A stretch of 64,000 nt of DNA from Escherichia coli (GCF_024502345.1 NZ_JALDNN010000001.1), one strand, 5' to 3'. Positions 10,670 to 61,525 are shown, counted from the stretch's first letter. A program made the numbers and translations. The notes: generated by a model from the sequence alone, not told the origin.

Positions 10670-12649
10670 ATGTTTAGGTTGAACCCTTTCGTACGGGTCG
10701 GGCTGTGTTTGTCCGCTATTTCTTGTGCATGGCCTGTGTTAGCGGTCGATGATGATGGCGAAACGATGGTTGTCACTGCATCTTCCGTTGAACAAAACCT
10801 TAAAGATGCACCCGCCAGTATCAGCGTCATTACCCAGGAAGACCTGCAGCGAAAACCGGTACAGAATCTGAAGGATGTCCTCAAAGAAGTGCCTGGCGTA
10901 CAACTGACGAACGAAGGGGATAACCGTAAGGGCGTTAGTATTCGTGGTCTGGACAGCAGCTACACCCTGATTCTTGTCGACGGTAAACGCGTTAACTCCC
11001 GCAATGCCGTCTTCCGCCACAATGATTTCGATCTGAACTGGATCCCGGTCGATTCCATCGAACGTATTGAAGTGGTCCGTGGCCCGATGTCGTCGCTGTA
11101 CGGTTCCGATGCGCTCGGCGGTGTAGTGAATATCATCACCAAAAAAATCGGTCAGAAATGGTCGGGTACCGTTACCGTCGATACCACCATTCAGGAACAT
11201 CGCGATCGCGGTGATACCTATAACGGTCAGTTCTTTACCAGCGGACCATTAATTGACGGTGTGCTAGGAATGAAAGCTTACGGCAGCCTGGCAAAACGTG
11301 AAAAGGATGACCCGCAAAACTCAACGACCACCGATACTGGAGAAACGCCGCGTATTGAAGGATTCTCCAGCCGCGACGGCAATGTCGAATTTGCCTGGAC
11401 ACCGAATCAAAATCACGATTTTACTGCCGGATACGGTTTCGACCGTCAGGATCGTGATTCCGACTCGCTGGACAAAAACCGCCTGGAACGCCAGAACTAC
11501 TCCGTCAGCCATAATGGGCGTTGGGATTACGGCACCAGCGAACTGAAATACTACGGTGAGAAAGTCGAGAACAAAAACCCTGGCAACAGCAGCCCGATAA
11601 CTTCCGAAAGCAATACGGTCGACGGCAAATACACGTTGCCGCTGACGGCGATTAATCAGTTTCTCACGGTTGGCGGTGAATGGCGTCACGACAAACTTAG
11701 CGATGCGGTGAACCTGACCGGGGGAACCAGCTCCAAAACGTCTGCCAGCCAGTACGCGCTGTTTGTGGAAGATGAATGGCGGATCTTCGAGCCGCTGGCG
11801 CTGACGACCGGCGTGCGTATGGACGATCACGAAACCTACGGTGAACACTGGAGTCCGCGTGCCTACCTGGTTTATAACGCCACCGACACCGTAACGGTGA
11901 AAGGGGGCTGGGCGACGGCATTTAAAGCACCTTCTCTGTTGCAACTTAGCCCTGACTGGACGAGCAATTCCTGCCGTGGCGCATGTAAGATTGTGGGTAG
12001 CCCGGATCTGAAACCAGAAACCAGCGAAAGTTGGGAGCTGGGGCTTTACTACATGGGTGAAGAAGGCTGGCTGGAAGGGGTTGAATCCAGCGTTACCGTT
12101 TTCCGTAACGATGTGAAAGATCGTATCAGCATCAGCCGTACGTCTGACGTCAATGCTGCACCGGGCTACCAAAACTTTGTTGGTTTTACAGCGAACGGTG
12201 TGCCGGTATTTAGCTACTACAACGTTAACAAAGCACGTATTCAGGGCGTGGAAACCGAGCTGAAAATTCCGTTCAACGATGAATGGAAACTGTCACTCAA
12301 CTACACCTACAACGATGGTCGTGATGTCAGCAACGGCGAAAACAAACCGCTATCCGATCTGCCGTTCCATACCGCTAACGGTACGCTGGACTGGAAACCG
12401 CTGGCGCTGGAAGACTGGTCATTCTATGTTTCTGGTCACTATACCGGGCAGAAACGAGCCGACAGCGCGACGGCTAAAACACCGGGCGGTTATACCATCT
12501 GGAATACCGGCGCGGCCTGGCAGGTGACTAAAGACGTCAAACTGCGCGCAGGCGTGCTGAACCTTGGCGACAAGGATCTCAGTCGTGACGACTACAGCTA
12601 TAACGAAGACGGACGTCGTTACTTTATGGCAGTGGATTATCGCTTCTGA
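10670..12649 (+). CDS. cirA: TonB-dependent outer-membrane receptor for catecholate siderophores / colicin I receptor, 659 aa
   Basis: ORF track; signal peptide, TonB box (ETMVVTA), C-terminal aromatic residue. Confidence 0.95.
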
Positions 12650-12656
12650 TAAGAAG

Positions 12657-12676
12657 ATGCCCGGCGAACCGGGCGG
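12657..12676. terminator. Short GC hairpin between convergent cirA and yeiG
   Basis: GCCCGG-CGAA-CCGGGC hairpin; weak T-tract. Confidence 0.35.
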
Positions 12677-12680
12677 ACTT

Positions 12681-13550
<870 letters not shown>

Positions 13551-23436: not shown

Positions 23437-23563
23437 ATATACTCGTCATACTTCAAGTTGCATGTGCTGCGTCTGCGTTCGCTCACCCCAGTCACTTACT
23501 TATGTAAGCTCCTGGGGACTCACTCACTTGTCGCCTTCCTGCAACTCGAATTATTTAGAGTAT
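23437..23563. repeat. ERIC (IRU) element, full-length about 127 bp
   Basis: TATACTCGTCATACTTCAAGTTGCATGTGCTGCG ... GAATTATTTAGAGTATA imperfect palindrome characteristic of ERIC. Confidence 0.8.
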
Positions 23564-47289: not shown

Positions 47290-49293
47290 TCATCCTTGTT
47301 GCTGAAGCATGGGGAATAATTGTTCGCACAGCAAAACGCAGTTATTCATTGCTTCTACCCGTGCCTCGCTTTCTGTATTACGAAATTGTCCCAATACATG
47401 TGCCAGCCGATAAAAAACCACCGCGGTGAGGTCATTCGCCAGCAACTCTGCCTGACCAATAGCACTCTGTTCCTGATAGCGCCAGCCGTTATGGAGCAGT
47501 TGAATAAGTAATGCCTGGCAGCGCATCAGCAACTGATGAGCAGTAGACGGCACAGGCAGAACGCTGACAGAAGGTAGTGATGCCACCACAGGCGCAGTTT
47601 CTGCGTCCAGCGCCCAGGCACGAGTCTTTGTCATCATTACCTGTGGTTCCAGTGTCAATTGCCCATCAACAAAACTGACAAAGCCAGAAACCAGACACAC
47701 GGGGTCGTCTGTTTGTTGCAAAAGCGCCGCCATGCGTTCAATGGCATAAGGCGCGCTGGCTGAGGCTGGCAGTGATAACGTCAGCAGATTATCTTCACCT
47801 TCGCCGCTGATTACCTGCGCATCCAGCGTCTGGCGGCTGCTATCCCAACCGAGCGAAATACACTCAGCGACCGGCAGAATAAATAAGTTATCGACCTGAT
47901 TAAGAGGCCGTATGCAGGAGGGGGGACGCTGGCGTAAATATTCCCGCAAAGCCACAATGCCCGGCTGGCGTAACGGCGCGCTCAACATTTGCCAGGCATC
48001 AGGCGACAGCGGCACAACGCTGCTTAAGCGGTTGCGGGTAGCTAACAGCAGCTCGCCATCGGCACTGCGTTTTGCTGCTTGTGAAACAATTTGCCCACCC
48101 GCCAGTGCGCCAGCCTGAAAACTAAACAGCCGACGCGTAGCTGCCGGTGAGTTTTCCTGTTCACTTCGCGGCCAACTGCGCGAAAGGTGCAAAATACTGC
48201 CGGTGTCGGGATCGGTAAACCAGATGCGTAAACCATAATGCTCAATATCCTGCCAGCAACGCATACCTAAAGACACCAGCCGCAGATGATCAAGCTTTGC
48301 TTCTCCGGCAATGCCAGAGCCAACGACCGTGCGCCACGGCACAGGAGGAACTTCACCAACACTGTCGCGCCGCGCCATCTCTTGTGCGCAATTTAATCGA
48401 CTGTTTAATGCCGCAAGCTGACGTAAGCATTCTCCGGCATGATAGTGGCTGGCGCGGGCGTGGAAGGCATCAACGCTGGCGCGCAGTTGCCGTAGCGATT
48501 CACTCACCCATCGCCAGTTGCAGCGTTCCGCTGCTTGCTGCGCGCGGCTGAAAGCGGCCTCGTAGTGAATAAGCGGCTGGCTGATGCCGCCCAGCCATAA
48601 TGCCTGGCTTAGTTGCTGAACATATTGACGACACGTTTTGCCTTCTTCGCTGGCAAACAGATCGTCAGATGATGTGACGTGTTCGCTGCGCATCTGCCAG
48701 ATTAAATGAGTCAATTCCGGTTGCTGCGCTTTTGCCTGGACAAAGGCCTGTACTGCCAGTACGACATGTTCGCAAAGTGTGCCTTCAATACAATCACAAC
48801 GGGCGAAACGAATGCTGCTACGGGAATAAAAACGCACATCGCTCATCGGTAAGCGGGCAGAGGGAATTTCGCCCGGCGTACAGAACAACTCAATGGTGAT
48901 GCCTTTAGCGACCAGCGCCTGCGCGCGTTTGCGGGTGGCATCGGGCAGGGTAGCCAGTTCTTCCAGCCAGATTGCCGGATCCCACTCTTCTTCTTTTTCT
49001 GTGGGCTGGACGGTGGCACAAAGTCGTTGATAACTTAACACCAGCATCACGCGATGACGGCACATGCCGCTGGCCCCGCAGCTGCACTGAGCCTCTTTCA
49101 GTGCCTGGCCGTTCGCCAGCTGGGTACGGACACCGTCACTGAAGGTGGCGATTAAAGCGCCGTTCTCATGGCTGATCTCCGGGACGTTGCCATTTTCCAG
49201 TTCCTTAAGACTGCGCTTAACAAAACCGGCATTGCTTAACGCTGTCAGGGCCTGCGGTGTCAGTTCTAATAATTCCGGACGTAGTGAATTCAT
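47290..49293 (-). CDS. yehQ: SWIM zinc-finger protein (667 aa from ATG 49293)
   Basis: ORF track (extension to 49317); two CxC...CxH SWIM-like motifs; ATG overlaps yehP stop (ATGA). Confidence 0.8.
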   Translation of the reverse strand: MNSLRPELLELTPQALTALSNAGFVKRSLKELENGNVPEISHENGALIATFSDGVRTQLANGQALKEAQCSCGASGMCRHRVMLVLSYQRLCATVQPTEKEEEWDPAIWLEELATLPDATRKRAQALVAKGITIELFCTPGEIPSARLPMSDVRFYSRSSIRFARCDCIEGTLCEHVVLAVQAFVQAKAQQPELTHLIWQMRSEHVTSSDDLFASEEGKTCRQYVQQLSQALWLGGISQPLIHYEAAFSRAQQAAERCNWRWVSESLRQLRASVDAFHARASHYHAGECLRQLAALNSRLNCAQEMARRDSVGEVPPVPWRTVVGSGIAGEAKLDHLRLVSLGMRCWQDIEHYGLRIWFTDPDTGSILHLSRSWPRSEQENSPAATRRLFSFQAGALAGGQIVSQAAKRSADGELLLATRNRLSSVVPLSPDAWQMLSAPLRQPGIVALREYLRQRPPSCIRPLNQVDNLFILPVAECISLGWDSSRQTLDAQVISGEGEDNLLTLSLPASASAPYAIERMAALLQQTDDPVCLVSGFVSFVDGQLTLEPQVMMTKTRAWALDAETAPVVASLPSVSVLPVPSTAHQLLMRCQALLIQLLHNGWRYQEQSAIGQAELLANDLTAVVFYRLAHVLGQFRNTESEARVEAMNNCVLLCEQLFPMLQQQG

Positions 49294-50426
49294 GACTGAA
49301 GATTCTCCGCAAGCCATGATGCCAGTTCGCCCGGTGTCATGGCGGCTATTTGTGCGCCGACATTAACCAGCGCCTGGGCCGTATCGCGGTCATAGCAAGG
49401 CGTTGCTGTGCTATCGAGCGCCGCCAGTCCCAGCACTTTGATGCCGCTCTGGACACACTTTTTCACCTGATGCGTCAGCAATGATGATGAACCCCCTTCG
49501 TAAAAATCGCTCACGAGGATAATGACGCTTTTTGCTGGTTGTTCAATAAGTTGCCGACCATATTCCACGGCACTGGCGATATTGGTCCCGCCGCCCAACT
49601 GTACTTTCATTAATAACTCTACCGGATCGGCAACGTCTGCCGTGAGATCAACGACGCTTGTGTCAAACGCCACCAGATGGGTACGAATGCCGGGTAACTG
49701 CCACAAACAGGCCGCCATCACCGCAGAGTGGATCACCGAGTCCACCATCGATCCGCTTTGATCAACCAGTAAGACCAGTTGCCATTGTTCACTGTGGCGT
49801 TTAATGCGGCTGTTAAAGCGGGGGGATTCGATATACAACTTGCCGTGTTGCGGGTGCCAGTGTTGCAGGTTGGCGCGCAGAGTACTTTTGAAATCAAAGT
49901 TTCGCGCCAGTGGAATAAATGAGCGGCGACGGCGATCGCGGACACCAGAAAAAGCCTGACGAACTTCCTTTGCCAGTCGAGCCATAATTTCTTCAACAAC
50001 CTGGCGCACTATCCGGCGGGCGGCAGCCAGTACTTCGGGGTTCATCAGATGTTTGGTGTGCAAAACGGCGCGTAGCAGACTTTCAGAAGGCTGCATACGT
50101 TCCAGCACGTCGAGATTCGTCACCACATCTTCAATGCCGTAGCGCAGTACGGCATCGCTTTCCAGCCGCTCAATCACCTGTTGCGGAAACAGCGTGTGAA
50201 TACTGTTGATCCACTCAGGGGTGGTGAGATTTGAGCTACCTAATCCACCGGAACGTTCACCACGCTGGAGCCGTTCAGGATCGCGCCCATACAGCCACTC
50301 CAGCGCGTGGTCTATCTGCCGGGCGTTGTCATCCAGCCCACAAAGCGTCGTTTCTGCCGCTTCGCCAAGAATTAATCGCCAGCGTTGTAGCTCACGGGTG
50401 GTCAGAAGATCGTTCAGTTCAGACAT
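49290..50426 (-). CDS. yehP: von Willebrand factor A (vWA) domain protein (378 aa from MSELNDLL start)
   Basis: ORF track (extension to 50654); MIDAS motif DQSGSM. Confidence 0.8.
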   Translation of the reverse strand: MSELNDLLTTRELQRWRLILGEAAETTLCGLDDNARQIDHALEWLYGRDPERLQRGERSGGLGSSNLTTPEWINSIHTLFPQQVIERLESDAVLRYGIEDVVTNLDVLERMQPSESLLRAVLHTKHLMNPEVLAAARRIVRQVVEEIMARLAKEVRQAFSGVRDRRRRSFIPLARNFDFKSTLRANLQHWHPQHGKLYIESPRFNSRIKRHSEQWQLVLLVDQSGSMVDSVIHSAVMAACLWQLPGIRTHLVAFDTSVVDLTADVADPVELLMKVQLGGGTNIASAVEYGRQLIEQPAKSVIILVSDFYEGGSSSLLTHQVKKCVQSGIKVLGLAALDSTATPCYDRDTAQALVNVGAQIAAMTPGELASWLAENLQS

Positions 50427-52698
50427 GGAAAACTCCCCAGTTTTGCAGCGATGCCAGTGCCTGCTGTTCGAGTTGTTGATGATGTGCAATGGCTTGTGGT
50501 GGACAATGCAACGGCATTTGCAGCGCCGAAACGGGAAGTTGCGCCAGTTGATAATGCTCAAGCACCTGATGCGCCAGCGTCCCGCGTTCTCGTGGTGGTA
50601 GCCAGGCCATCGCCGCGCGTAAATCGGGCAGGGCATTGATAAAATTGGCATCACTCAGTTGATTTAAATGACTGCTGAAACCGGCGATAAATGCCGGCTG
50701 ACAGGCCAGTTGATGGCGGGCCAGCGCCAGCAAACCGTGCAGCGCTTCGCCGGATTGTGCCGGGGATAACTGCGCCAGCATCGTCAGCGCCGCTTCGGCA
50801 CTAGCGTTGGGATGTTCCAGACGCATCAGTGCGCCAAGAGCCGCGCCGCGATCCAGCGCCGGGGCATGGATTGCCTGACTGCGTCGCTCCAGTAAGGCTA
50901 CCGCCGCAGAAAGAGAAACGCCGGGTAAATTAACGCCGCTATATAGATCGCGCAGGATATGGCAAAGCGCCTGCCAGCTATGCATGTGAGCGTGAAACTC
51001 CTTTTCATCTGGTCTGCCGTTAGATTCACACAGCCACAGCGTGCGATCGATAGCCGCGCATAACGTCGTTTGTAATATCTGCGCGCCTTGCATACCGCTA
51101 ATTTCATCCAGCCGCCATAAGGCATATAGCACTTCCAGCGCCTGGCCCATTTCGGCAAATTGATTTTCCTGGGCGATTAATAATGTGAGTTGCTCCAGTA
51201 ATTGTTGACTGAAGGACGCCAGACCCGCTAACGCCGCCTGGCTAAGACATGTGGTGATACTGCCGATTCCACCCGCGTCCAGCATATCGGTTTCTAATTT
51301 ATGGCGTGCGGCTTCCTGGAGTGTGGCACCAAAGCAGGCGGCCTCAATCAATGCCGCATGCTGGCTAAGCGGGCGGGTTAATTTCCAGCGTTCTTCACCG
51401 TTGCCTGCAAGTGTCAGTGTGCTTCCCTGCTGGCGTACAATCCCTGGGATCTCCAGTATTGCCAGCCGATGTAACACCTGACTTTGCGCTAGTCCATTGG
51501 GGTTAAAGCGATTTAAGGTAAGCTCCGCCGGAAGAGAGATTGCGGTACGTTCCAGTTCGCAGGTGACATCTTTTGGCAGAGGCGGTTGTGGCGTAGAAGG
51601 GGCAAGTTTACCGAATCCGTCACCCGCTAATGTGTCTATCAACGTTAGCAGAATCGGATCGGTATCGGGATGAATAACGCCGCGATAGCTCCATGGCAAC
51701 GGCGCATTCAGGGATTCTTTAATCAGCGAGCCTGCTAAGGCATCCAGCCAGTCAGTGCGTAACGGTAGTGTATGACCGCGCAACTGTGCCAGCGCCATCG
51801 CATGCAGATGAGCGGCAGCCATATCCGCGGTCGAAGCAGGCAAGTGGTGTTGGCGCAAACGGGTAAGAACCGTTTTTAGCAGTTGTTCTCCCGCCTGCTG
51901 TAAGCCCCACTGCCAGCACCAGCTTTGCCAGACCGGGGCAGGCATTCCTGAAAGGTATCCTGCCAGCACATCAAGGCGCTTTTCACTGTAGGGTGTGAGA
52001 TAACAACCTGTAACGGCATCTGCCAGCGAGGGCAATTCTGGCTTGTTAATGTCCTGCGGACATTCGCGCCACATTTTTGCCAGTGCCGGAGCGTGCCAGC
52101 CACCGCAGACGACTAACACGTCGCCATTGTTTTGCTGCATCGCCCATGCAATCCAGCGGGCCATGAAGGCTTCGCGCTGACGATTGAGAGCATCTCCGGG
52201 GGAATCGCCCCGCAGTTGTGCAAAATAGTGCGCCAGCGCAGAGGGTAATGCAGTTTGCTGGCTTTCATCTTCGAATAAGTGATCCCACAGGGTATCGCTG
52301 TTATCCATGCGGGTGGCACGCAGCAGTAAGGTCTGGCTTTCATCTTGCGTATCAGGCGAATCGTTCTCTTCTTCACTCTGCGCCCAGCAAGGCAAATCGA
52401 TGAAGTAAGTTTATGCCTGAATACGACGTGCGGCTTGTAGCGCCTGCCACTCCGGCGAAAATTCAGCAAATGGCGTCCAGGCACCACGCCCGGGGGCCGC
52501 ACCGTCCTGATACTGGCAATAACTGTAAATAGCTACCGGAAGCTGGTGGGCTAAAAACAGTTCGTCTACCCGGTCATTAAAATCAGCCGGGCCTTCAATC
52601 AACACGTATCGTGGCCGCTGGCTTTCGATTAATGATTTGACCAGCCGGGCGCAGGCCGGGCTATGATGCCGGATGCCGACAATTAACGGCTCGCTCAT
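50419..52698 (-). pseudogene. yehM: yehM reading frame (759 codons) interrupted by a single in-frame TAA at 52411-52413 (codon 96)
   Basis: ORF track entries 52411-52866 and 50419-52395 are in the same frame, separated only by TAA plus 5 sense codons; summed length equals the 759 aa I recall for intact YehM. Confidence 0.65.
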
Positions 52699-52708
52699 GC
52701 ATCTTTCC

Positions 52709-53797
52709 TCACGGCAGGCGGTGGCGGGCTTGATAATAAGCCTGCCAGTGAGCTTCTTTATGTGTGGCGACACGCTGTTCGAAGTAACGGCGCAGACGAG
52801 CGCGATCTTCTTCGTTATCTTTGACGATGGTTCCGGCAATACAGTCCACCAGATCGGCTGGCTCACCTGCGCGATTCGCTAAAAACCAGGCGCGGACGCC
52901 CACAGCGTGGGCCACGTTCACGGCTTCAGCGGTGGACATAATCGCTGTTAGTGTATCCATTGACGTTTTCTTTTCGCCGTTGGCACGCAGATCGCGGAAG
53001 GTGCGGACCAGTAACTCCAGTACCGCGTCAGGCACTTTATGCGGAATACCGCTATGGGCCAGCAAACGCGCCGAAGCACTGGCGACAAGCTCCAGCTCCT
53101 GGGCGAAATCCATAATCGGAAAGACAGTTTCAAAATCGAAGCGACGCTTTAGCGCAGCACTCATTTCATTGACGCCGCGATCGCGGGTATTGGCAGTGGC
53201 AATAATATTAAAGCCTTCTCGCGCATAGAGCTGACTGGCTTCACCAGTGAGTTCCGGCACCGTCATCACCCTGTCAGAAAGCATACCTAACAGACAGTCT
53301 TGCACTTCCAGCGGTGTACGCGTTATCTCTTCAAAACGGACGATTTTGCCGTCGCGCATTCCCTGGTAAAGCGGGGCAGGGACCAGCGCTTCCGTTGATG
53401 GACCATGATTGATAAGCAGGGCGTAGTTCCAGCCGTACTTGATTTGATCTTCGGTAGTAGATGCGCCGCCCTGGATGGTTAACCCGGCATCGCCGCTAAT
53501 AGAGGTTGCCAGTAATTCAGACAGGAGAGATTTTGCGGTGCCAGGTTCCCCCACCAACATCAAACCGCGTCCGGTGGCAAGAGTGACTAACATACGTTCG
53601 ACAGCGGAGGGACTAATCACCACTTTACGGCTAATATTTTGCGCGCTATCGCCAAGGATAAAAGCACGGGCCGCAGGCAAACTTAACTGCCAACCGGGCG
53701 GGCAAGGTGCGTTATCATTTTGTTTTAATTTTGCCAGTTCATCGGCGTATAACACAGCAGCAGGCGGACGCTGCAGATGATTATTCTGCGGTGACAT
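52709..53797 (-). CDS. yehL: MoxR-like AAA+ ATPase (362 aa from MSPQNNH start)
   Basis: ORF track (extension to 53863); Walker A GEPGTAKS and Walker B-like hhhhDE region. Confidence 0.85.
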   Translation of the reverse strand: MSPQNNHLQRPPAAVLYADELAKLKQNDNAPCPPGWQLSLPAARAFILGDSAQNISRKVVISPSAVERMLVTLATGRGLMLVGEPGTAKSLLSELLATSISGDAGLTIQGGASTTEDQIKYGWNYALLINHGPSTEALVPAPLYQGMRDGKIVRFEEITRTPLEVQDCLLGMLSDRVMTVPELTGEASQLYAREGFNIIATANTRDRGVNEMSAALKRRFDFETVFPIMDFAQELELVASASARLLAHSGIPHKVPDAVLELLVRTFRDLRANGEKKTSMDTLTAIMSTAEAVNVAHAVGVRAWFLANRAGEPADLVDCIAGTIVKDNEEDRARLRRYFEQRVATHKEAHWQAYYQARHRLP

Positions 53798-53908
53798 ATA
53801 TTCATCCCTGAAATGTATTAATGAAATAAACGATATTTTACGCGCAATAAATGTTTGGCGCATTAGTTGTTTGAGCGAAAAATATCTGGAAAGCAGATCA
53901 CAGTAAAT

Positions 53909-53991
53909 AAAAAAACCTGCTGGTGAGGCAGGTTCTTTTATTTACTATTTTCAGGCCTAACACCACAGCCTGTGCAACATCGTGTTCCAAC
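53909..53991 (-). ncRNA. orzP: Predicted ~80-nt divergent small RNA (OrzO/OrzP-like antitoxin RNA), copy A
   Basis: Minus-strand promoter (-35 TTGCAA 54021-54026, 17-bp spacer, -10 TATAAT 53998-54003); minus-strand intrinsic terminator (stem ACCTGC/GCAGGT then U7) at 53909-53934; 5' region repeats leader sequence at 54138-54157. Confidence 0.5.
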
Positions 53992-54020
53992 GAACGAATT
54001 ATAACCACGGCTGGACCCCG

Positions 54021-54048
54021 TTGCAATTAAGATAATGAGATTTATAAT
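54021..54048 (+). promoter_or_regulatory. Sigma70 promoter of peptide gene copy A (-35 TTGCAA, 16-bp spacer, -10 TATAAT); -35 shared with the divergent sRNA promoter
   Basis: Hexamers read directly; predicted TSS near 54056 gives a ~174-nt leader. Confidence 0.6.
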
Positions 54049-54229
54049 CCTGACTGTTGGGACGTTGCGCCGGATCGAACCTATTTCAAGTCCTGGCTAC
54101 CGGACGGGGGGTGCTGCAGGTAGTGCCCTGATCCGGAGTGCAACATCGTGGTCCAACATACGTAAACCAGTATCGACAGGCAGTGTAAGGGTAAGGTGCT
54201 GGTGTTGCGCTCCTTAATAAGGAGAGCGG

Positions 54230-54319
54230 ATGGACTCGCTGACACAAAAGTTAACCGTGCTCATTGCTGTACTGGAGCTATTAGTGGCTCTGTTACGGTT
54301 GATTGATTTGTTGAAGTAA
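54230..54319 (+). CDS. zorP: 29-aa hydrophobic peptide MDSLTQKLTVLIAVLELLVALLRLIDLLK (type I toxin candidate, ZorO/ZorP-like), copy A
   Basis: ATG with AAGGAG SD 7 nt upstream; single predicted TM helix; sequence as I recall ZorO-family toxins; symbol O versus P uncertain. Confidence 0.7.
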   Translation: MDSLTQKLTVLIAVLELLVALLRLIDLLK

Positions 54320-54341
54320 CGGGCAAATTGAAACGCATCTA

Positions 54342-54366
54342 AGGGGGAAAACCGCTTCCCCCTTTA
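54342..54366 (+). terminator. Terminator of peptide gene copy A
   Basis: AGGGGGA-loop-TCCCCCT followed by TTAATAAAAT. Confidence 0.55.
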
Positions 54367-54518
54367 ATAAAATGATTACTGTTTTTATTAATTCATCATA
54401 TAACTCATTTTTATTTATAAATTCATCGATTTTATATTCAACGCACCATTTGACCGGGATGTGAATATTTATGTTGGGCTATTGGCAAAAAATATCTGGA
54501 AAGTAGATCGCAGAAAAT

Positions 54519-54599
54519 AAAAAAACCTGCTGGTGAGGCAGGTTCTTTTATTTACTACAGTGACGCTAACTTGCTGATTGTGCAACATTTCGTACCAAC
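54519..54599 (-). ncRNA. orzO: Predicted ~80-nt divergent small RNA, copy B
   Basis: Minus-strand -10 TATAAT (54606-54611) and shared -35 TTGCAA (54629-54634); terminator hairpin plus U7 at 54519-54543; 18-nt complementarity (one G-U) to leader at 54749-54766. Confidence 0.5.
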
Positions 54600-54628
54600 G
54601 AATAAATTATATCCATATCCACACTCCA

Positions 54629-54656
54629 TTGCAATTCAGTGAGTGAGATTTATAAT
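54629..54656 (+). promoter_or_regulatory. Sigma70 promoter of peptide gene copy B (-35 TTGCAA, 16 bp, -10 TATAAT)
   Basis: Read directly; same geometry as copy A. Confidence 0.6.
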
Positions 54657-54837
54657 CCTGCCCGTTGGGAGGTTGTGCCGGATCGGACCAATTTTAAGTC
54701 CTGGCTGCCGGACGGGTGGTGCCGCAGGCGGTGCCCTGATCCGGAGAGCAACGTTTCGTACCAACATACGTAAACCAGTATCAACAGGCAGTGTAAGGGT
54801 AAGGTGCTGGTGTTGCGCTCCTTAATAAGGAGAGCGG

Positions 54838-54927
54838 ATGGACACGCTGACACAAAAGTTAACCGTGCTCATTGCCGTACTGGAGTTATTAGTGGCTCTG
54901 TTACGGTTGATTGATTTGTTGAAGTAA
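54838..54927 (+). CDS. zorO: 29-aa hydrophobic peptide MDTLTQKLTVLIAVLELLVALLRLIDLLK (type I toxin candidate), copy B
   Basis: ATG with AAGGAG SD; differs from copy A by S3T only. Confidence 0.7.
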   Translation: MDTLTQKLTVLIAVLELLVALLRLIDLLK

Positions 54928-54949
54928 CGGGCAAATTGAAACGCATCTA

Positions 54950-54974
54950 AGGGGGAATACCGTTTCCCCCTTTA
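54950..54974 (+). terminator. Terminator of peptide gene copy B
   Basis: AGGGGGAA-loop-TTCCCCCT then TTTAAG. Confidence 0.5.
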
Positions 54975-54982
54975 AGAAAGCT

Positions 54983-55036
54983 ATACTCGTCATACTTCAA
55001 GTTGCATGTGCTGCGACTTTAATTATCTAGAGTATA
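54983..55036. repeat. Truncated (short-form) ERIC element: left and right termini without the central part
   Basis: TATACTCGTCATACTTCAAGTTGCATGTGCTGCG + ACTTTAATTATCTAGAGTATA; compare full copy at 23437-23563. Confidence 0.7.
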
Positions 55037-55354
55037 TTATTCTATTTCTTGGTTGAATATATTCTGTAGTTCACGATTAAAAATTGCTATTACAGTTTCA
55101 GGTGATTCACCTCGTAATTTCCGCTCATCAATACACTCATCTCTTATATAAATCAACGCATCATTTATTAGCGGGTCAGCATCTTCTCGATCACGTTGAT
55201 GAAATGTTGGATGTAGCCGGAATCGCTCCAGTCGATAGACGGAACCTGTAAATAATTCAGAGCATTTATGGATCTCAAGTCTGAAGGAAAACGGATCTTC
55301 AGGTACAGGGACCTCATAATCGTAAATAGCAACTAGCTCTTTTTGCACGATCAT
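55037..55354 (-). CDS. yehK: Uncharacterised small protein, 105 aa
   Basis: ORF track; synteny between yehL and yehI. Confidence 0.7.
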   Translation of the reverse strand: MIVQKELVAIYDYEVPVPEDPFSFRLEIHKCSELFTGSVYRLERFRLHPTFHQRDREDADPLINDALIYIRDECIDERKLRGESPETVIAIFNRELQNIFNQEIE

Positions 55355-55414
55355 CGCTTTCCCCGCTGGTAAGTCGTGTAGATAACGGGCAGTCGCATCA
55401 CTGCCCGCTGTGTT

Positions 55415-57622
55415 TTAATGGAAAATGACGTCAGGTGCGCTTAACGCCTCACTCAAATCAAACACATCAAGTTCGGCAAAAGTGACGGATTTATTGTCAC
55501 GGTACACTCGAAGAGAACGGAAGCTCATTAGCGCTTTGCTATCAACATTGTAGTGGTTAAAACCGGGTGAAAACTTAAGGACCAGCCGGTACTCGCCCAG
55601 GTCATAGACAAATGCATCCTCATAGCCTGACTCCCAGCCTTTGTATCGCATTCCCATAAGCTGCCCAACGGTAGCGGATTTACCTTCCCAGCGAGTCAGG
55701 CTGTTACTGGTTGACTCGTCAGGTGTGAGCAGCACCGTGCACCGCGCCAACTGGCGAAAAGGCGGCATAATTTCGTAATCGGCAAAAAGCTGTGCAAATT
55801 CACTGCGCATTTCTACTGTCATTTCTAACGGGTGGGCAATGCCAATCAGAGCGTCCGCAGGCAGGTCAATTGGCTCATCTTGCGCATTGCAGAACTCCCC
55901 CTCTGCGGCCACACGAAAGGCGTTGAGTAAACAACGCGGTTCATTTGCCGGATAAGCCCCCCATATTAATCGCTGGGTAACCAGACGGGTAAAGGGATGA
56001 TTAACAAACAGAGAATGAAAATCTGCCAGCGACCAGCGTCGGGTGGTACGTAGGGCCGTTTCAAGACGCGGGAGCAGGTTTTTGCTCACCTGAGTGGCAT
56101 CTTTTTTTAGCCCTTTTAGTCGGGCCAGTGCCTCGGGCGCTTTCAGTTGATCGTCATCGGCGCGCAACCGGGGAACGCTTTTCTGGCGAACGTTTTGCTG
56201 ATCAAAGATAACCGGGTTGAGGTTTTCATCGAAGCGAACGGTAAACTGCCGGGGACCAAAATCAAAACTCAACGCCTGCGGATCATCAAGGCCCAGGGTT
56301 GGGACTAATCTGTCCGCTAGCTCTTCCTGGCTTAGCCCGCGATTTTCTGCGACCACCTGAAGAAATTCCGCCGCGTTATCACGTAAGGGGCGGGATTTCG
56401 CCCGTTGCGATATATGATGCAGCTGTATCAGCGCCATATCATTATTCATCAGGGTAAGGATGTTCAGGCCACTGACAGCACGGGCAGATTTGCCTTCTTG
56501 TGGCCAGCCGAGGATCTGTGTCGTTAGATCCCGTGCCGTGCTTTCGTCACCAAAGAGACTTAACGCCAGAAATGCCCAGTTGTCTTTTACGGGGGCACCA
56601 GCTTGTTGCCACGCAGTGAAGAGATCCCAGGCAAAAGCTGCCAGCGTTTGTGGCTGGCAGAACGTTTTCAGTTGTTCCAGCCCGCTATAAAAACGTCCCC
56701 CCTGGGTAAAGCGCAGCATTTCGCCGATAATTTCCAGAGCGTCATCGGTAACAGGTTGATTATTAGTGATAAGGCGCGGCCTGGACCACATTTGCGGATG
56801 CCAGAAATCAGGGGCTTTTGGAATGCGTGCCGGGTAAATCTCTATTGGACTCTGTTTAAGTAATTGTTCCAGGGCAGGCCATAGATCTGTACGCTGCCAA
56901 CGATTGGCTACAGTTTGTAGCAATTCGCCATGCCCATGTTCGTAAAGTAAACGCAGGGCAAGTAATGCAGCTTCGCTTTTATCGCTAGATTTGGTGAAGA
57001 CAAGAGGGATAAGTGCAGTAGCCGTATGTTCCGGCCATTGTAAAATCCACTGGCGAGCCAGATTACGCTGGCCCGCAAAACGCTGCCAGCAGCTTTCCTC
57101 TGCCAGAGAGAGATGCTTACGCAGTCGGAGATCGAATTCGTTATAGGTTTCTGAGCGATAACCATAGCCATAATCCTCGTCCTGATACTGCAATGTCACT
57201 ACCAGAGGATCACTCTCATAACACCGCGCAATAAACTGGCGTGCAATCACCACCTCAGTCGCATATTCCAGCCCCTCTTGTTGGACGATTTCGTCGAGCA
57301 ACTGTTGGCTGTCATTTTGCGCGATACAGGCTAGCGCCGCCATTGTCCGGGGCGGGATTGAGGGTTTGTGTTCGCCGATCAAGTTGATGGCCTGCGTGAT
57401 GGCGGACTGCCACTCCAGTGAAAAATTTTCATAACGCCAGACAATGTTTTTTTTCTTCTCAGCTTTTTGTAGCAATTCATCACCCAGTGTCTGAATGATG
57501 CTTTCAGTGATAACAGGCACTGGTTCGCCCGGCCAATTGCGATGGCTGAGTGGTGTTTTACCATTTTTATATTTCAGTTCCAGTTGGGCGTTATCAGCCA
57601 GCCACGGTAATTCCTTGTCCAT
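55415..57622 (-). CDS. yehI: DUF4132-family protein, 735 aa; shorter paralog of the adjacent 1264-aa gene
   Basis: ORF track; ATG with AAGGAAAG SD 9 nt after the upstream stop; aligns to the longer paralog from about residue 105 and skips its central ~420 residues. Confidence 0.7.
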   Translation of the reverse strand: MDKELPWLADNAQLELKYKNGKTPLSHRNWPGEPVPVITESIIQTLGDELLQKAEKKKNIVWRYENFSLEWQSAITQAINLIGEHKPSIPPRTMAALACIAQNDSQQLLDEIVQQEGLEYATEVVIARQFIARCYESDPLVVTLQYQDEDYGYGYRSETYNEFDLRLRKHLSLAEESCWQRFAGQRNLARQWILQWPEHTATALIPLVFTKSSDKSEAALLALRLLYEHGHGELLQTVANRWQRTDLWPALEQLLKQSPIEIYPARIPKAPDFWHPQMWSRPRLITNNQPVTDDALEIIGEMLRFTQGGRFYSGLEQLKTFCQPQTLAAFAWDLFTAWQQAGAPVKDNWAFLALSLFGDESTARDLTTQILGWPQEGKSARAVSGLNILTLMNNDMALIQLHHISQRAKSRPLRDNAAEFLQVVAENRGLSQEELADRLVPTLGLDDPQALSFDFGPRQFTVRFDENLNPVIFDQQNVRQKSVPRLRADDDQLKAPEALARLKGLKKDATQVSKNLLPRLETALRTTRRWSLADFHSLFVNHPFTRLVTQRLIWGAYPANEPRCLLNAFRVAAEGEFCNAQDEPIDLPADALIGIAHPLEMTVEMRSEFAQLFADYEIMPPFRQLARCTVLLTPDESTSNSLTRWEGKSATVGQLMGMRYKGWESGYEDAFVYDLGEYRLVLKFSPGFNHYNVDSKALMSFRSLRVYRDNKSVTFAELDVFDLSEALSAPDVIFH

Positions 57623-57631
57623 GCTCTTTCC

Positions 57632-60600
57632 TTATTCAAACAGGGCTTCAATATCGTTAATTAGCTCGCTGGCGGTGATGGCATCGAGTACGGAGAGCTG
57701 CGCTTCCTGTGTTGAATTACTCCCCCAGCCATAGCTTTCCGCTTTGCCTTCCCATAGCCACAGCTTGCTTAAGAGCTGCTCAGCGCTAAGTTCGGCTGGT
57801 GACATACCCACTGCAAAGCCTTCATCGATTTCCATGATTAACGACCAGCGGCCCAGAGGTTTGATCATCCAGCCGATCCAGCCTCCATCCTGTGGTTCGC
57901 CCTTTATCCAGCCTTTATTCGCCAGCCCCATTACCCGACCGCTCGGGCATTTTCTGCTTGCCCAGCGGGTCAGTTCGCTGGCATTGCGCTCGGTTTCTGT
58001 CAGGGCGTAACTGTTACGGTCGAGCTGGCGGAACGGCGGTAGCAGTTCGTAGTCGGCAAAAAGCTGCCCAAATGCGGCGGCATCCGTCGGTGATATTTCC
58101 AGAACGTGAGGAATACCAACAGAGATATCGCCTTCCGGCAGGGTGAAAAGATCATCGTCAGCGGTGCTGTAGCTGTTATCTTCCGCTACGCGAAAGCAAG
58201 CCAGTAGCTGGTTTTCGGCGCTATAAACACCCCAAATCAGACGGCGGGTTAAGTGGCGAACCAACGGATGCTCAACCAGGAAGAGCTGGAAGTTTTCCGG
58301 CGACCAGCGGCGGCGCAGGCACATGGCGGATTCCAGCCTTGCTACCTGCTGGGCGGCGACGGTACGCGCATCTTTTTTCAGCAATTTGTAGCGGTTAACC
58401 GCATCGTTCGCCTGTGATTCATCATCGCTTTTATTGGGTTTAGGTAAGTCTTTCAGGCGGCTGCCGGAAACATCACGCACAAACGGTTTTAAGGTTTCAT
58501 CAAAGCTGACGGTGAACTGGCGTGGGCCAAAATCCAGCAGCAACGAACCGTTATCATCCAGACCGAGATCCGGTGCTAACCGATCTTCAAGCTCCGCCAC
58601 TGTCAGTTCGCGACTTTCGGCAATGTCGGCAATTTTCTCTTTCGCCCGCTCCTGTAATGCTTTGAATTTCAGTTTCTGGGCAATGCCGTTAAGCTGCATC
58701 AGGGCGATATCACTACCGATAGCGGCGAGAATATCCAACCCAACGGTGGCGCGTTTATGCTGAGATTCGCCAGGCCAGGCGCGGATTAATGGCGTCAGTT
58801 TGCGGGCGGTGTCATCGTTGCCGAGAACACCTAACGCAATGAACGCCCAGCTTTCTTTCGATGGCGCGCCCGCAGTCAGCCAGGCGGTAAACAGATCCCA
58901 GGCAAATTCAGCCAGTGAGTCGGCGGTACAGGCATCTTTCACCTGCAATAATCCCGGATACAGAGCCTCTTCCTGAGGGAAGCGGAGCATTTCACCGAGG
59001 TGCTGGAGTGCGCTATCGGGCAGTGATTGGGCGTTTGCTTTTAATACCGGGCGCGTCCAGAGCGATGGCTGATAAAAGGCCGGAAGAGTGGGGATTTTTG
59101 TCGGGTGATTATCTAAGGGATCGAGCGCAAGCAGAGCGTTCACCGCGTCTGTTACTTCCGGCTGGTTATAACGCCGGGCGATTTCTTGCAGTAATGGCTG
59201 ATGACCATTTTCGGTAAGCATACGCAAGGCAGCGCGGGCGTTATCCTGTGCTTCACCGGCTTTGCCGAGCGCCGCAGGCAGCAGGCCGGTAAGGGCATGT
59301 TCCGGGTATTTCAGCAGCCAGGTGCGGGCGTCTTGTCGTAGGGTTTTGAGTTTGTTGAAGGCGCGGGCGACGGCAGGAGCTAGCTCACTCGCTGCGAAGT
59401 AATTCGTGATGGGCAAGGCTTCCTGCGGATAGCGTGTAATTGAGTTAACTAAACCAGGTAAACCTTTGAGTCCAAAATGTAACATGGCGTATTCGGTATC
59501 GGTATGTGGAGATAGAGTAAGGGCATTCCATGCTTTTACTGCTTTCTCCAGCGGCAATGTTGTCAAAATCCCCAAATGCCAATAATGCCCGGTAGGTGAA
59601 TGAAACACCTTAAATTCACTTATTAAGGTTGAATAATCTTCATTTAGCCATGCCTCAACTACCGCTTCGGGAGCTTTAATATATGTACCAGCGATCCGTC
59701 GTTGAAAACCCATCCTTGCCAACAGGTTGGTAGTACTTTCTTCATGGCTAACCGTGATGTGTTGTGAATACCAGATATATTTCGCCAAAAGTTGATTACT
59801 GATTTCTTCTGTCATATAACAGATTGGCTCAATGCCTAATGGCGCTAAATCCAGCACCGGAATCGGCGATTTTTTCTTTTTCGAAAGCCATGGTGGGGAG
59901 ACTACTATGGCAGGCAGTAGATCGGCGCAGGCATGGTTTGAGGGCTGTGTCAGTTGTTGCTGGCATGATTTCAGTACGGCAACTGCGGGTGTCGAGAGCC
60001 AGGGAAGGACCTGTTCTGCCAGTGCTGGTTGTGAGATAAGCATTGTCATTAGCATAATGCGCCAACTGTTCTCTTCTTTTTGCCCAAGAAGTTCCGTCAG
60101 TGCCGCCATTGCTGCATGTGGGAACGCAGCAATGGCTTTCGTCATCCGATCGTGACAGCGTTTAGTTTGCCCGGCTACACGTATAAGCAGTGTCAATGCG
60201 ACCGGATGATTGATATGACGCAACACATCGGCGCAGTAGTCACTTGCGGCATAGGGAGCAAATCGGGGCAGGGCTGCAACACCTTGCTCCTGTAATACGG
60301 TGGCTGACCATATCGCACCACAATAGTAATCATCAAAAATGGCATATGGCTCGTGATATTTTTCTAATGAGGCAAGAATGTGCTCATCAGTCGCCACTAT
60401 TTTTAACCACTCAAGCGAGGGTAATTTTTTTTGCCCCAGTAGACGCTGGGCAATTTCATGTGCAATTTCTGGTTTTTCGGGTAATAACAAAGCAATTAAT
60501 GGTTGCCGCCATTCTGGAATATGTGGAATTGCGGCAATAAGTTTTTGTGCACATTTTTGCCAGAGAGACTCTTCCGCCAGTGATAAATGTTTACGTAGGC

Positions 60601-61426
60601 GTAATTCAAATCTGGAATATTGCTCCAAGTAGTTAGGTGCAATGCCAGACGGCAGAATAATAATGACATTATTCGCATAATCCCATTCAATATCAATCTG
60701 TTGAAGGTGTATTATTACATCAGTAGCATATGCCAGACCGCCTTCCTGGACGATCTGATCCATAACATCCTCACGCACTTTATATCTTGTGCATTTCATT
60801 TCAAGTGCCGTGAGTACAGCCATTACTGGTGATGGTAACTGTGTTGTTTTCAGGCCGTCGATCTGACTGATCGCCTGGGCGACGGTGTTTTGCCATTCTA
60901 AAGAACAGGCGCTGAAGTCAAATGTGGCTGTTTTATTATCCCGTTGCGACACACTACAGGCTAAGCGACGTAAGTGGGTCAATTTGTCTGCTTGCTGAAC
61001 AGGAACTTCGGGAAAGCGGCGATGGCTTAACGTGGTGTGTACAACTTCGGGCGGAAAAACGACAGCAATATCTTTCGCCAGCCACGGTAAAACAGCATCT
61101 GTATTTTTGTCAGCCGCACGGGTTTCTGCTACGAAAGAGGGTTGTTCCTGAATAATGGTGGATAAGTCCGCTACCTTGAGAGAGCCCGTTACCGTTTGGG
61201 AAGGTTGCAAAGAATTATCCTTCGCTTGCTCCATATATCCCTTCTTCACCTTCTCCGCAATCAGCTTCAGTTCCGCTTTTGCCGCCGCTGCAGCATCTGC
61301 AAAGCTTTTTACCTGACTTTGCCCGTTAGTGCCGACTTTACCCCAGTTGATATGCAGCTCGTTGTCTTGCTGCTCCACCGCCCAGAATTTATGTGATTTT
61401 TCGTCCTGATAGATATAACTCTTCAT
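57632..61426 (-). CDS. molR: WGR-domain plus DUF4132 protein, 1264 aa, intact reading frame
   Basis: ORF track; N-terminal WGR-like motif (KFWAVEQQDNELHINWGKVGTNGQ); position between metG and yehI. Confidence 0.75.
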   Translation of the reverse strand: MKSYIYQDEKSHKFWAVEQQDNELHINWGKVGTNGQSQVKSFADAAAAAKAELKLIAEKVKKGYMEQAKDNSLQPSQTVTGSLKVADLSTIIQEQPSFVAETRAADKNTDAVLPWLAKDIAVVFPPEVVHTTLSHRRFPEVPVQQADKLTHLRRLACSVSQRDNKTATFDFSACSLEWQNTVAQAISQIDGLKTTQLPSPVMAVLTALEMKCTRYKVREDVMDQIVQEGGLAYATDVIIHLQQIDIEWDYANNVIIILPSGIAPNYLEQYSRFELRLRKHLSLAEESLWQKCAQKLIAAIPHIPEWRQPLIALLLPEKPEIAHEIAQRLLGQKKLPSLEWLKIVATDEHILASLEKYHEPYAIFDDYYCGAIWSATVLQEQGVAALPRFAPYAASDYCADVLRHINHPVALTLLIRVAGQTKRCHDRMTKAIAAFPHAAMAALTELLGQKEENSWRIMLMTMLISQPALAEQVLPWLSTPAVAVLKSCQQQLTQPSNHACADLLPAIVVSPPWLSKKKKSPIPVLDLAPLGIEPICYMTEEISNQLLAKYIWYSQHITVSHEESTTNLLARMGFQRRIAGTYIKAPEAVVEAWLNEDYSTLISEFKVFHSPTGHYWHLGILTTLPLEKAVKAWNALTLSPHTDTEYAMLHFGLKGLPGLVNSITRYPQEALPITNYFAASELAPAVARAFNKLKTLRQDARTWLLKYPEHALTGLLPAALGKAGEAQDNARAALRMLTENGHQPLLQEIARRYNQPEVTDAVNALLALDPLDNHPTKIPTLPAFYQPSLWTRPVLKANAQSLPDSALQHLGEMLRFPQEEALYPGLLQVKDACTADSLAEFAWDLFTAWLTAGAPSKESWAFIALGVLGNDDTARKLTPLIRAWPGESQHKRATVGLDILAAIGSDIALMQLNGIAQKLKFKALQERAKEKIADIAESRELTVAELEDRLAPDLGLDDNGSLLLDFGPRQFTVSFDETLKPFVRDVSGSRLKDLPKPNKSDDESQANDAVNRYKLLKKDARTVAAQQVARLESAMCLRRRWSPENFQLFLVEHPLVRHLTRRLIWGVYSAENQLLACFRVAEDNSYSTADDDLFTLPEGDISVGIPHVLEISPTDAAAFGQLFADYELLPPFRQLDRNSYALTETERNASELTRWASRKCPSGRVMGLANKGWIKGEPQDGGWIGWMIKPLGRWSLIMEIDEGFAVGMSPAELSAEQLLSKLWLWEGKAESYGWGSNSTQEAQLSVLDAITASELINDIEALFE

Positions 61427-61525
61427 CCGCGTTTCCTGTATTTATATCCAGTTATAAGCGGATGCTAGCAGTTAATGAAAAAAATTAAGAGCGTTGAACA
61501 AACAAGAAAACAACTTTAGGAATTT

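Follow-up and report, generated by a model that had tools for sequence, protein, structure and literature searches.

A conserved MoxR-vWA cassette of five protein families at the yehLMPQ-molR locus of Escherichia coli

Layout of the yehQ-molR segment

A window of 64,000 nucleotides of Escherichia coli DNA (GCF_024502345.1, NZ_JALDNN010000001.1) was analysed, and within it we consider the segment at positions 47290-61426, which is flanked by yehR/btsSR and metG on the E. coli chromosome and is matched in 5425 of 5426 complete E. coli genomes. The segment carries seven genes on the minus strand, yehQ, yehP, yehM, yehL, yehK, yehI, and a molR-like gene, all of which lie where an earlier note made from the sequence alone had placed them. 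The genes yehLMPQ together with molR and yehI make up about 13 kb of the near-core E. coli genome and include one of only two MoxR ATPases of this species, and 30 years after sequencing they are still without an assigned function. In agreement with the same note, which knew of no assigned function, no functional study of yehL, yehM, yehP, yehQ, DUF5682, or DUF4132 was found in the searchable literature.

Read in the direction of transcription, the segment begins with the molR-like gene (57632-61426), the 1264-amino-acid product of which consists of an N-terminal WGR domain, a long middle region of roughly 800 residues, and a C-terminal DUF4132 domain. After a gap of 9 nt follows yehI (55415-57622), a DUF4132 paralogue without WGR that is 735 amino acids long here and carries an in-frame 475-codon deletion, and then yehK (55037-55354), a small Escherichia-only gene of 105 amino acids that is placed between the DUF4132 genes and a spacer of 1.17 kb (53864-55036). 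Beyond the spacer lie yehL (52709-53797; 362 amino acids), the founder of the YehL subfamily of MoxR-family AAA+ ATPases, and, 10 nt further on, yehM (50419-52698; 759 codons), a DUF5682 gene that is a pseudogene in the window and encodes a predicted TIKI/TraB/ChaN/Ere-like N-terminal domain followed by HEAT/MIF4G-like repeats. The next gene, yehP (49290-50426; 378 amino acids), overlaps yehM by 8 nt and encodes a CoxE-type von Willebrand factor A (vWA) protein with a metal ion-dependent adhesion site (MIDAS) motif. An ATGA overlap joins it to yehQ (47290-49293; 667 amino acids), which encodes two N-terminal SWIM fingers, a helical linker, a predicted oligonucleotide/oligosaccharide-binding (OB)-like region, and a C-terminal four-helix bundle. 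The ATGA overlap and the gaps of 9 and 10 nt had been described before, whereas the short gap that had been supposed between yehM and yehP gives way to the overlap.

The spacer between yehL and yehK consists of two direct repeats, zorO-orzO and zorP-orzP, of about 610 bp each and roughly 88% identical. These are the two tandem type I toxin-antitoxin units that had been noticed within the block, with OrzO-P matches in Rfam at 53909-53984 and 54519-54592 (99.9 and 88.8 bits) and with ZorO open reading frames (ORFs) that were read directly from the plus strand. The zor-orz locus was described by Fozo et al. (2010, PMC2887945) and the copy number of the spacer varies; E. coli genomes carry two units, one unit, or a remnant of about 0.2 kb, as in K-12. 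Of the enterobacterial repetitive intergenic consensus (ERIC) fragments reported within the block, one 34-nt piece was recovered (54982-55015), just downstream of the yehK stop codon, which is identical to part of the complete ERIC element found elsewhere in the window and may be adjoined by a further piece of 16 nt; the complete element, the sole one of the window, lies at about 23438-23523 and thus outside the block. The suggestion that the region is variable likewise holds for the spacer, the copy number of which differs between genomes, but not for the yehLMPQ core, which is stable. The spacer is an insertion and not a part of the machine that is considered below.

Conservation of the five-family cassette

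YehM (DUF5682) is represented by 2266 clusters at 50% identity and is present in at least 544 of approximately 100,000 species genomes. We compared 85 loci from about 80 species (80 of these at least 544 and five others), in which stop-to-stop ORFs were scored with the E. coli proteins. The loci cover Gamma- and Betaproteobacteria, Myxococcota, Acidobacteriota, and Actinomycetota, and practically all of those with enough flanking sequence share one order on one strand, namely one to five DUF4132 proteins followed by YehL, YehM, YehP, and YehQ. Three loci with a YehM identity of 31%-38% have the same gene order, and in Burkholderia the DUF4132 gene is placed after yehQ. A DUF4132 gene, as detected by the DUF4132 profile, lies within 10 kb of the other four genes in 79 of the 85 loci, which bears out the earlier assignment of these genes to the block, and in some loci it is amplified to 2-5 tandem paralogues. 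The Klebsiella locus is syntenic with that of E. coli and adjoins yehR-yehS-btsR; the flanks vary by taxon (transporters, regulators, and metabolic genes in five unrelated taxa), and no conserved candidate client enzyme was found beside the cassette in 88 loci. Moreover, YehM-YehP fusions occur in four independent clusters (P0294, P0350, P0379, and P0321).

Fusion proteins of these clusters, and of P0351, come from both metagenomic and genomic sequences, and a single sequence appears to join YehM to YehQ.

Across phyla, the DUF4132 protein or proteins, YehL, YehM, YehP, and YehQ are co-inherited as a set of five families with a fixed order. The earlier note had called the block conserved and had named a lack of co-occurrence outside E. 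coli as a finding that would speak against its reading; the genes do co-occur, the same five families being found in the same order in at least four phyla. That the five genes keep one order, that some of them are fused or overlap, and that the motifs described below are invariant shows the locus to encode one multi-subunit, ATP-dependent machine.

Within E. coli, yehLMPQ is present at a coverage of at least 80% in 5202 of the 5426 complete genomes (96%), at one locus. The DUF4132 region (55415-61426) diverges more than yehLMPQ (47290-53797), with 2166 versus 17 E. coli genomes at 90%-95% identity, which suggests allelic replacement or a faster evolution of adaptor genes. All genes are under purifying selection and are functional. 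Over Escherichia species and Klebsiella, the ratio of nonsynonymous to synonymous substitution rates (dN/dS) is 0.03-0.06 for yehL and yehP, 0.08-0.11 for yehM and yehQ, and 0.10-0.23 for the DUF4132 genes. It is 0.16-0.21 for yehK, homologues of which were seen only in Escherichia loci and which had no match in family scans. Among 72,556 plasmids, 38 carry the cassette, most of them being very large replicons. Phages are essentially devoid of it, the sole match being an uncultured "Bacteriophage sp." contig (MT835988.1), in which positions 11208-12770 encode a protein distantly related to YehM residues 1-515 (27% identity, E = 7e-27).

Two of the genes are damaged in the strain analysed here. 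The yehM gene has the length of 759 codons that had been given for it, but its reading frame is broken by an in-frame TAA at codon 96 (52411-52413, minus strand). The closest relative, NZ_CM136169 (99.9% identical), has CAA at this codon and the TAA is private to the window strain; with CAA in the closest genome, the TAA was rejected as a read-through or recoding site. The yehI gene comprises 735 codons versus about 1210, with 475 codons lost in frame at a junction at 57079-57089, and the deletion sits between two microhomologies of 11-13 nt (GCAA(A)ACGCTGCCAG). The additional 1.4 kb of yehI is kept in all E. coli genomes among the matches listed, those at 99.9% identity included, and the yehI gene of the nearest relative carries a 1-nt frameshift instead of the 475-codon deletion. 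Because of the stop at Q96 of yehM and the deletion in yehI, the machine is probably inactive in this strain. Lesions have also been reported elsewhere, as molR is disrupted in K-12 (PMC3950696) and one ST131 sublineage has a blaCTX-M-15 transposon in its DUF4132 region (PMC9334617).

Domains, predicted folds, and regulation

YehL matches AAA_5 in Pfam (PF07728, E = 1.6e-33) and gives its name to one of seven MoxR subfamilies (PMC3893208). The motifs pointed out earlier, Walker A GEPGTAKS in YehL and the MIDAS sequence DQSGSM in YehP, are both present. Walker A and the Walker B motif VRFEEITR are invariant in 82 sequences, and YehL would, by analogy with its family, form a MoxR-type AAA+ ring. 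YehP matches VWA_CoxE (Pfam, E = 6.4e-72), its MIDAS residues D222-x-S224-x-S226 are invariant in 80 sequences, and yehP sits two genes downstream of yehL in every locus. Other similarities are weak. YehL has a bpMoxR match in Pfam (0.0021, far below the 1.6e-33 of AAA_5), which recurs weakly in distant loci, and some similarity to GvpN in the NCBIfam scan, and YehP resembles cobaltochelatase; for all seven proteins, PADLOC and NCBIfam scans yielded, apart from weak likenesses to GvpN, MadB, McrB, and cobaltochelatase, nothing of further use.

A site prone to +1 ribosomal frameshifting has been reported in yehP (PMC2790909). The corresponding cassette at 49553-49568 (minus strand) reads GTGGAATATGGTCGGC here and GTGGAGTATGGTCGGC as published, and the one mismatch weakens the internal Shine-Dalgarno-like GGAG.

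YehM is assigned by Pfam to DUF5682 only (E = 9e-99). In an AlphaFold2 model of the intact protein (predicted local distance difference test score, pLDDT, 84; predicted template modelling score, pTM, 0.78), the N-terminal domain shares an alpha/beta fold with the TIKI/TraB/ChaN/erythromycin-esterase superfamily, and the remainder resembles HEAT or MIF4G repeats. Residues G8-x-x-H11, E35, R175, E176, and G199-G-x-H202 are invariant in 35 homologues with 45%-88% identity to the E. coli protein. Paired GxxH motifs together with a glutamate are the signature of the TIKI/TraB/Ere superfamily, a motif definition that reportedly goes back to Sanchez-Pulido and Ponting in 2013. Among 10 YehM N-terminal domains, one gave a TraB match that was weak (E = 0.064) and on target, at the second GxxH motif. 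The predicted fold of the YehM N-terminal domain is of the protease or esterase type, and the residues of its putative active site are invariant.

The SWIM zinc-finger protein of the earlier note is YehQ, in which the first finger matches PF04434 with E = 9.7e-4 and the second more weakly (E = 0.21). The CxCx5CxH pattern of the first finger (C70, C72, C78, and H80) is invariant; conservation of the second is not universal. In the model (pLDDT 89.6, pTM 0.85), the two fingers are followed by a helical linker, two successive OB-like beta-barrels at about residues 330-560, and a four-helix bundle, and the best structural matches of the central part were all tandem-OB DNA-binding modules, RPA70-AB and HIN domains among them. 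With regard to the start of yehQ, an in-frame ATG lies 24 nt upstream of the annotated one (49293-49317, minus strand) and would give 675 instead of 667 amino acids, that is, 8 additional residues. It falls within the end of yehP, and the RefSeq start is the one in the ATGA overlap.

As for the two large WGR/DUF4132 proteins that had been described, DUF4132 is present in both, while WGR is found in the molR-like protein alone. The latter matches DUF4132 in Pfam (E = 1.3e-50), its residues 3-70 match the N-terminal 70 residues of PDB entry 2ra8 (2e-15), and residues 1-78 match NCBIfam NF047464; its middle region had no match in family scans. The molR orthologues carry PF05406 (WGR) and PF13569. 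In YehI and its Klebsiella orthologue, DUF4132 was the only domain detected and WGR was not found. Sequence and profile searches of the PDB with YehM, YehQ, and the DUF4132 proteins returned only the N-terminal domain of 2ra8 (for the WGR region of MolR) plus chance matches to coiled coils and haemoglobin, and for the DUF4132 proteins a PDB relative was found for the WGR domain only.

Upstream of the molR-like gene, a putative LexA (SOS) box, CTGgatataaataCAG, was read from the sequence at 61436-61451 (minus strand), ending 9 nt before the ATG. It fits TACTG(TA)5CAGTA at 16 of 20 positions and the looser CTG-N10-CAG form only, as a strict CTGT-N8-ACAG search of the window gave no match. The box is consistent with the published SOS-regulon membership of molR, which is counted in a published table (PMC6590174), the source for its induction, among the LexA-regulon genes with a known SOS box; BglJ-RcsB is a further activator of the molR promoter (PMC3950696). 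In Deinococcus radiodurans, mitomycin C induces the DUF4132 protein DRA0166 and the WGR protein DR2173, by way of IrrE/DdrO (PMC8533742). A few GAAC-N4-GTTC matches upstream of the cassette in other taxa were rejected, as by their position they apparently lie within the coding sequence of an upstream paralogue.

Possible function and comparison with known systems

We tentatively propose, with a probability of roughly 40%, that the cassette is a MoxR-vWA remodelling or processing machine acting on DNA or nucleoprotein. Such a role is our best guess because three kinds of putative nucleic-acid-binding module are combined in the cassette and because two independent DNA-damage regulons touch DUF4132/WGR proteins. 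In the manner of other MoxR-vWA pairs, YehP would use its MIDAS motif to link the YehL ring to an acidic residue of a partner protein, for which the invariant D-Y-E of the FADYE motif of DUF4132 is a candidate. YehM, which is translationally coupled and sometimes fused to YehP, may act as a scaffold whose TIKI/TraB/erythromycin-esterase-type domain processes the substrate. With its SWIM fingers and predicted tandem OB folds, YehQ could hold the complex on DNA, which would probably be single-stranded or structured. Interchangeable sensor or adaptor subunits would be provided by the large DUF4132 proteins, which are often encoded in tandem and of which about half have a PARP-type WGR domain that may bind DNA ends or nicks. 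The likeliest task of the machine would be to remodel and cleave a protein sitting on damaged or abnormal DNA, and in E. coli it might be switched on by SOS control of the molR-yehI-yehK promoter.

Several observations weigh against this proposal. A WGR domain is missing from about half of DUF4132 proteins; among 30 sampled paralogues, 10 have one. The TIKI-like assignment of YehM comes from fold and motifs only, with no significant match in single-sequence and profile searches of the PDB, and ChaN-type members of the superfamily are binders and not enzymes. The OB-fold matches of YehQ are marginal, with E values of 7e-4 to 1e-2 and low TM-scores. As for regulation, a search of the sequence preceding the cassette in Serratia, Erwinia, Betaproteobacteria, and Actinomycetota found no LexA-type boxes, and in E. 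coli 1.2 kb with terminators separates yehLMPQ from the SOS-controlled promoter.

The same set of domains could also be read as a nucleoside triphosphate-dependent anti-phage or conflict system, in which the DUF4132/WGR proteins and the SWIM and OB-like modules would sense invading nucleic acid and the MoxR-vWA pair would then switch on the putative hydrolase YehM as the effector that attacks a protein of the phage or of the host. Predicted conflict systems are known to combine a MoxR-vWA pair with further genes for sensors and effectors, an architecture reportedly set out by Kaur et al. in eLife in 2020, and the weak bpMoxR match of YehL fits with it. So does the amplification of the sensor-like DUF4132 genes to 2-5 tandem paralogues, as well as their greater divergence in E. 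coli relative to yehLMPQ (2166 versus 17 genomes at 90%-95% identity); however, none of the seven proteins has a match in PADLOC-DB v2 (0 at E <= 0.01). The distribution is patchy across phyla, with the retrieved loci weighted towards Actinomycetota and Myxococcota, whereas within E. coli yehLMPQ occupies one locus in 5202 of 5426 genomes and is syntenic in Klebsiella. Frequent pseudogenisation (in the window, in K-12 molR, PMC3950696, and by the ST131 transposon, PMC9334617) would suit a conflict system, but purifying selection acts on all genes, and, although the relatives of the YehM fold include the toxins or effectors RRSP and HopBA1, the flanks in five unrelated taxa are of the housekeeping type and the cassette is found on few plasmids (38 of 72,556) and essentially not in phages. 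The defence- or conflict-like role that the earlier note had put forward is thus not directly supported and is somewhat disfavoured; we consider it doubtful, if still a serious candidate.

An assembly or metal-cofactor-insertion chaperone for a client enzyme, like CoxD/CoxE, NorQ/NorD, CbbQ/CbbO, or CobS/CobT-CobN, with the DUF4132 protein of about 1200 amino acids as the substrate-holding subunit, appears distinctly improbable. The characterised MoxR-vWA pairs are all maturation factors (PMC3893208), but no conserved client enzyme adjoins the cassette in 88 loci, and WGR, SWIM, and OB-like modules are foreign to the known cofactor-insertion systems. YehP belongs to the CoxE vWA family and has its weak cobaltochelatase match, and YehL has its weak match to GvpN, all of which would fit a chaperone. 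The size pattern of an AAA_5 protein, a vWA protein, and a protein of about 140 kDa also parallels CobS/CobT/CobN, yet neither CobN/BchH nor any solved structure is similar to the DUF4132 proteins. The old name of molR, "molybdate metabolism regulator", speaks for this explanation as well, whereas in Deinococcus the molybdenum genes did not co-vary with the induction of the DUF4132/WGR genes. It is extremely improbable that the genes lie together without any common function, be it as chance neighbours or as decaying remains of horizontal transfer. Two genes are damaged in the window, molR is disrupted in K-12, and the genes are listed in the paper on the genome-reduced strain DGF-298, but an order fixed over at least four phyla, the fusions, the invariant catalytic motifs, and dN/dS values well below 1 are at odds with such an origin, and the recent transfer of a single element is excluded by protein identities of 31%-48%.

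Returning to the machine acting on DNA or nucleoprotein, we think it rather unlikely, though conceivable, that the cassette represents a previously undescribed class of DNA-sensing AAA+/vWA-hydrolase systems, be it a bacterial counterpart of the p97/SPRTN type of DNA-protein crosslink repair, in which an AAA+ motor assists the proteolysis of proteins caught on DNA, or a new immune mechanism. In either case, abnormal DNA would be recognised by the WGR, SWIM, and OB modules, and a protease of the TIKI/TraB type would be set loose by the MoxR motor. If the link to DNA is true, the MoxR-vWA paradigm would extend from enzyme maturation to genome maintenance or immunity. With the unity of the cassette, the predicted fold of DUF5682, and the predicted OB folds of the SWIM protein, what was a list of "y-genes" becomes a system open to experiment, and this in the most tractable of organisms.

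Several of the components recall well-known proteins. The N-terminal WGR domain (PF05406) of MolR-like proteins, the reported SOS regulation of E. coli molR, and the damage induction of the Deinococcus WGR protein DR2173 are reminiscent of PARP-type WGR DNA-break sensors; unlike these, the cassette has no PARP catalytic domain, and about half of the DUF4132 paralogues, YehI included, are without WGR. From the members of the TIKI/TraB/PrgY/ChaN/erythromycin-esterase/RRSP superfamily, YehM differs in having no significant sequence similarity to them and in the fusion of its domain, which may be a protease, an esterase, or a ligand binder, to about 500 residues of helical repeats within a MoxR-vWA operon. 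The predicted tandem OB-like barrels in the centre of YehQ resemble those of RPA70 DBD-A/B, Teb1-AB, POT1, and HIN-200, but the identity is 8%-10% and YehQ has additional SWIM fingers and helical bundles.

As a whole, the cassette shares with the bpMoxR/vWA/beta-propeller or VMAP ternary systems a MoxR and vWA core with additional sensor or effector genes, a weighting of the retrieved loci towards Actinomycetota and Myxococcota, and the weak bpMoxR match, whereas no beta-propeller, VMAP, or effector-associated domains were found in the loci scanned, PADLOC gave no match, and the cassette is near-core and syntenic in E. coli. With the MoxR-vWA pairs RavA-ViaA, CoxD-CoxE, NorQ-NorD, CbbQ-CbbO, and CobS-CobT it has in common an AAA_5/MoxR gene near a CoxE-type vWA/MIDAS gene, both with intact motifs; it differs from them in that no client enzyme is encoded nearby and in three further, obligatory partners that no characterised pair is known to have: a DUF5682 protein with a predicted TIKI/TraB-like domain, a protein with SWIM fingers and OB-like barrels, and DUF4132 proteins, of which some carry WGR and others do not. 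The cassette is best filed as a five-component member of the MoxR-vWA kind, in which the YehL subfamily was already known and the predicted YehM fold and the OB-like assignment of YehQ are new.

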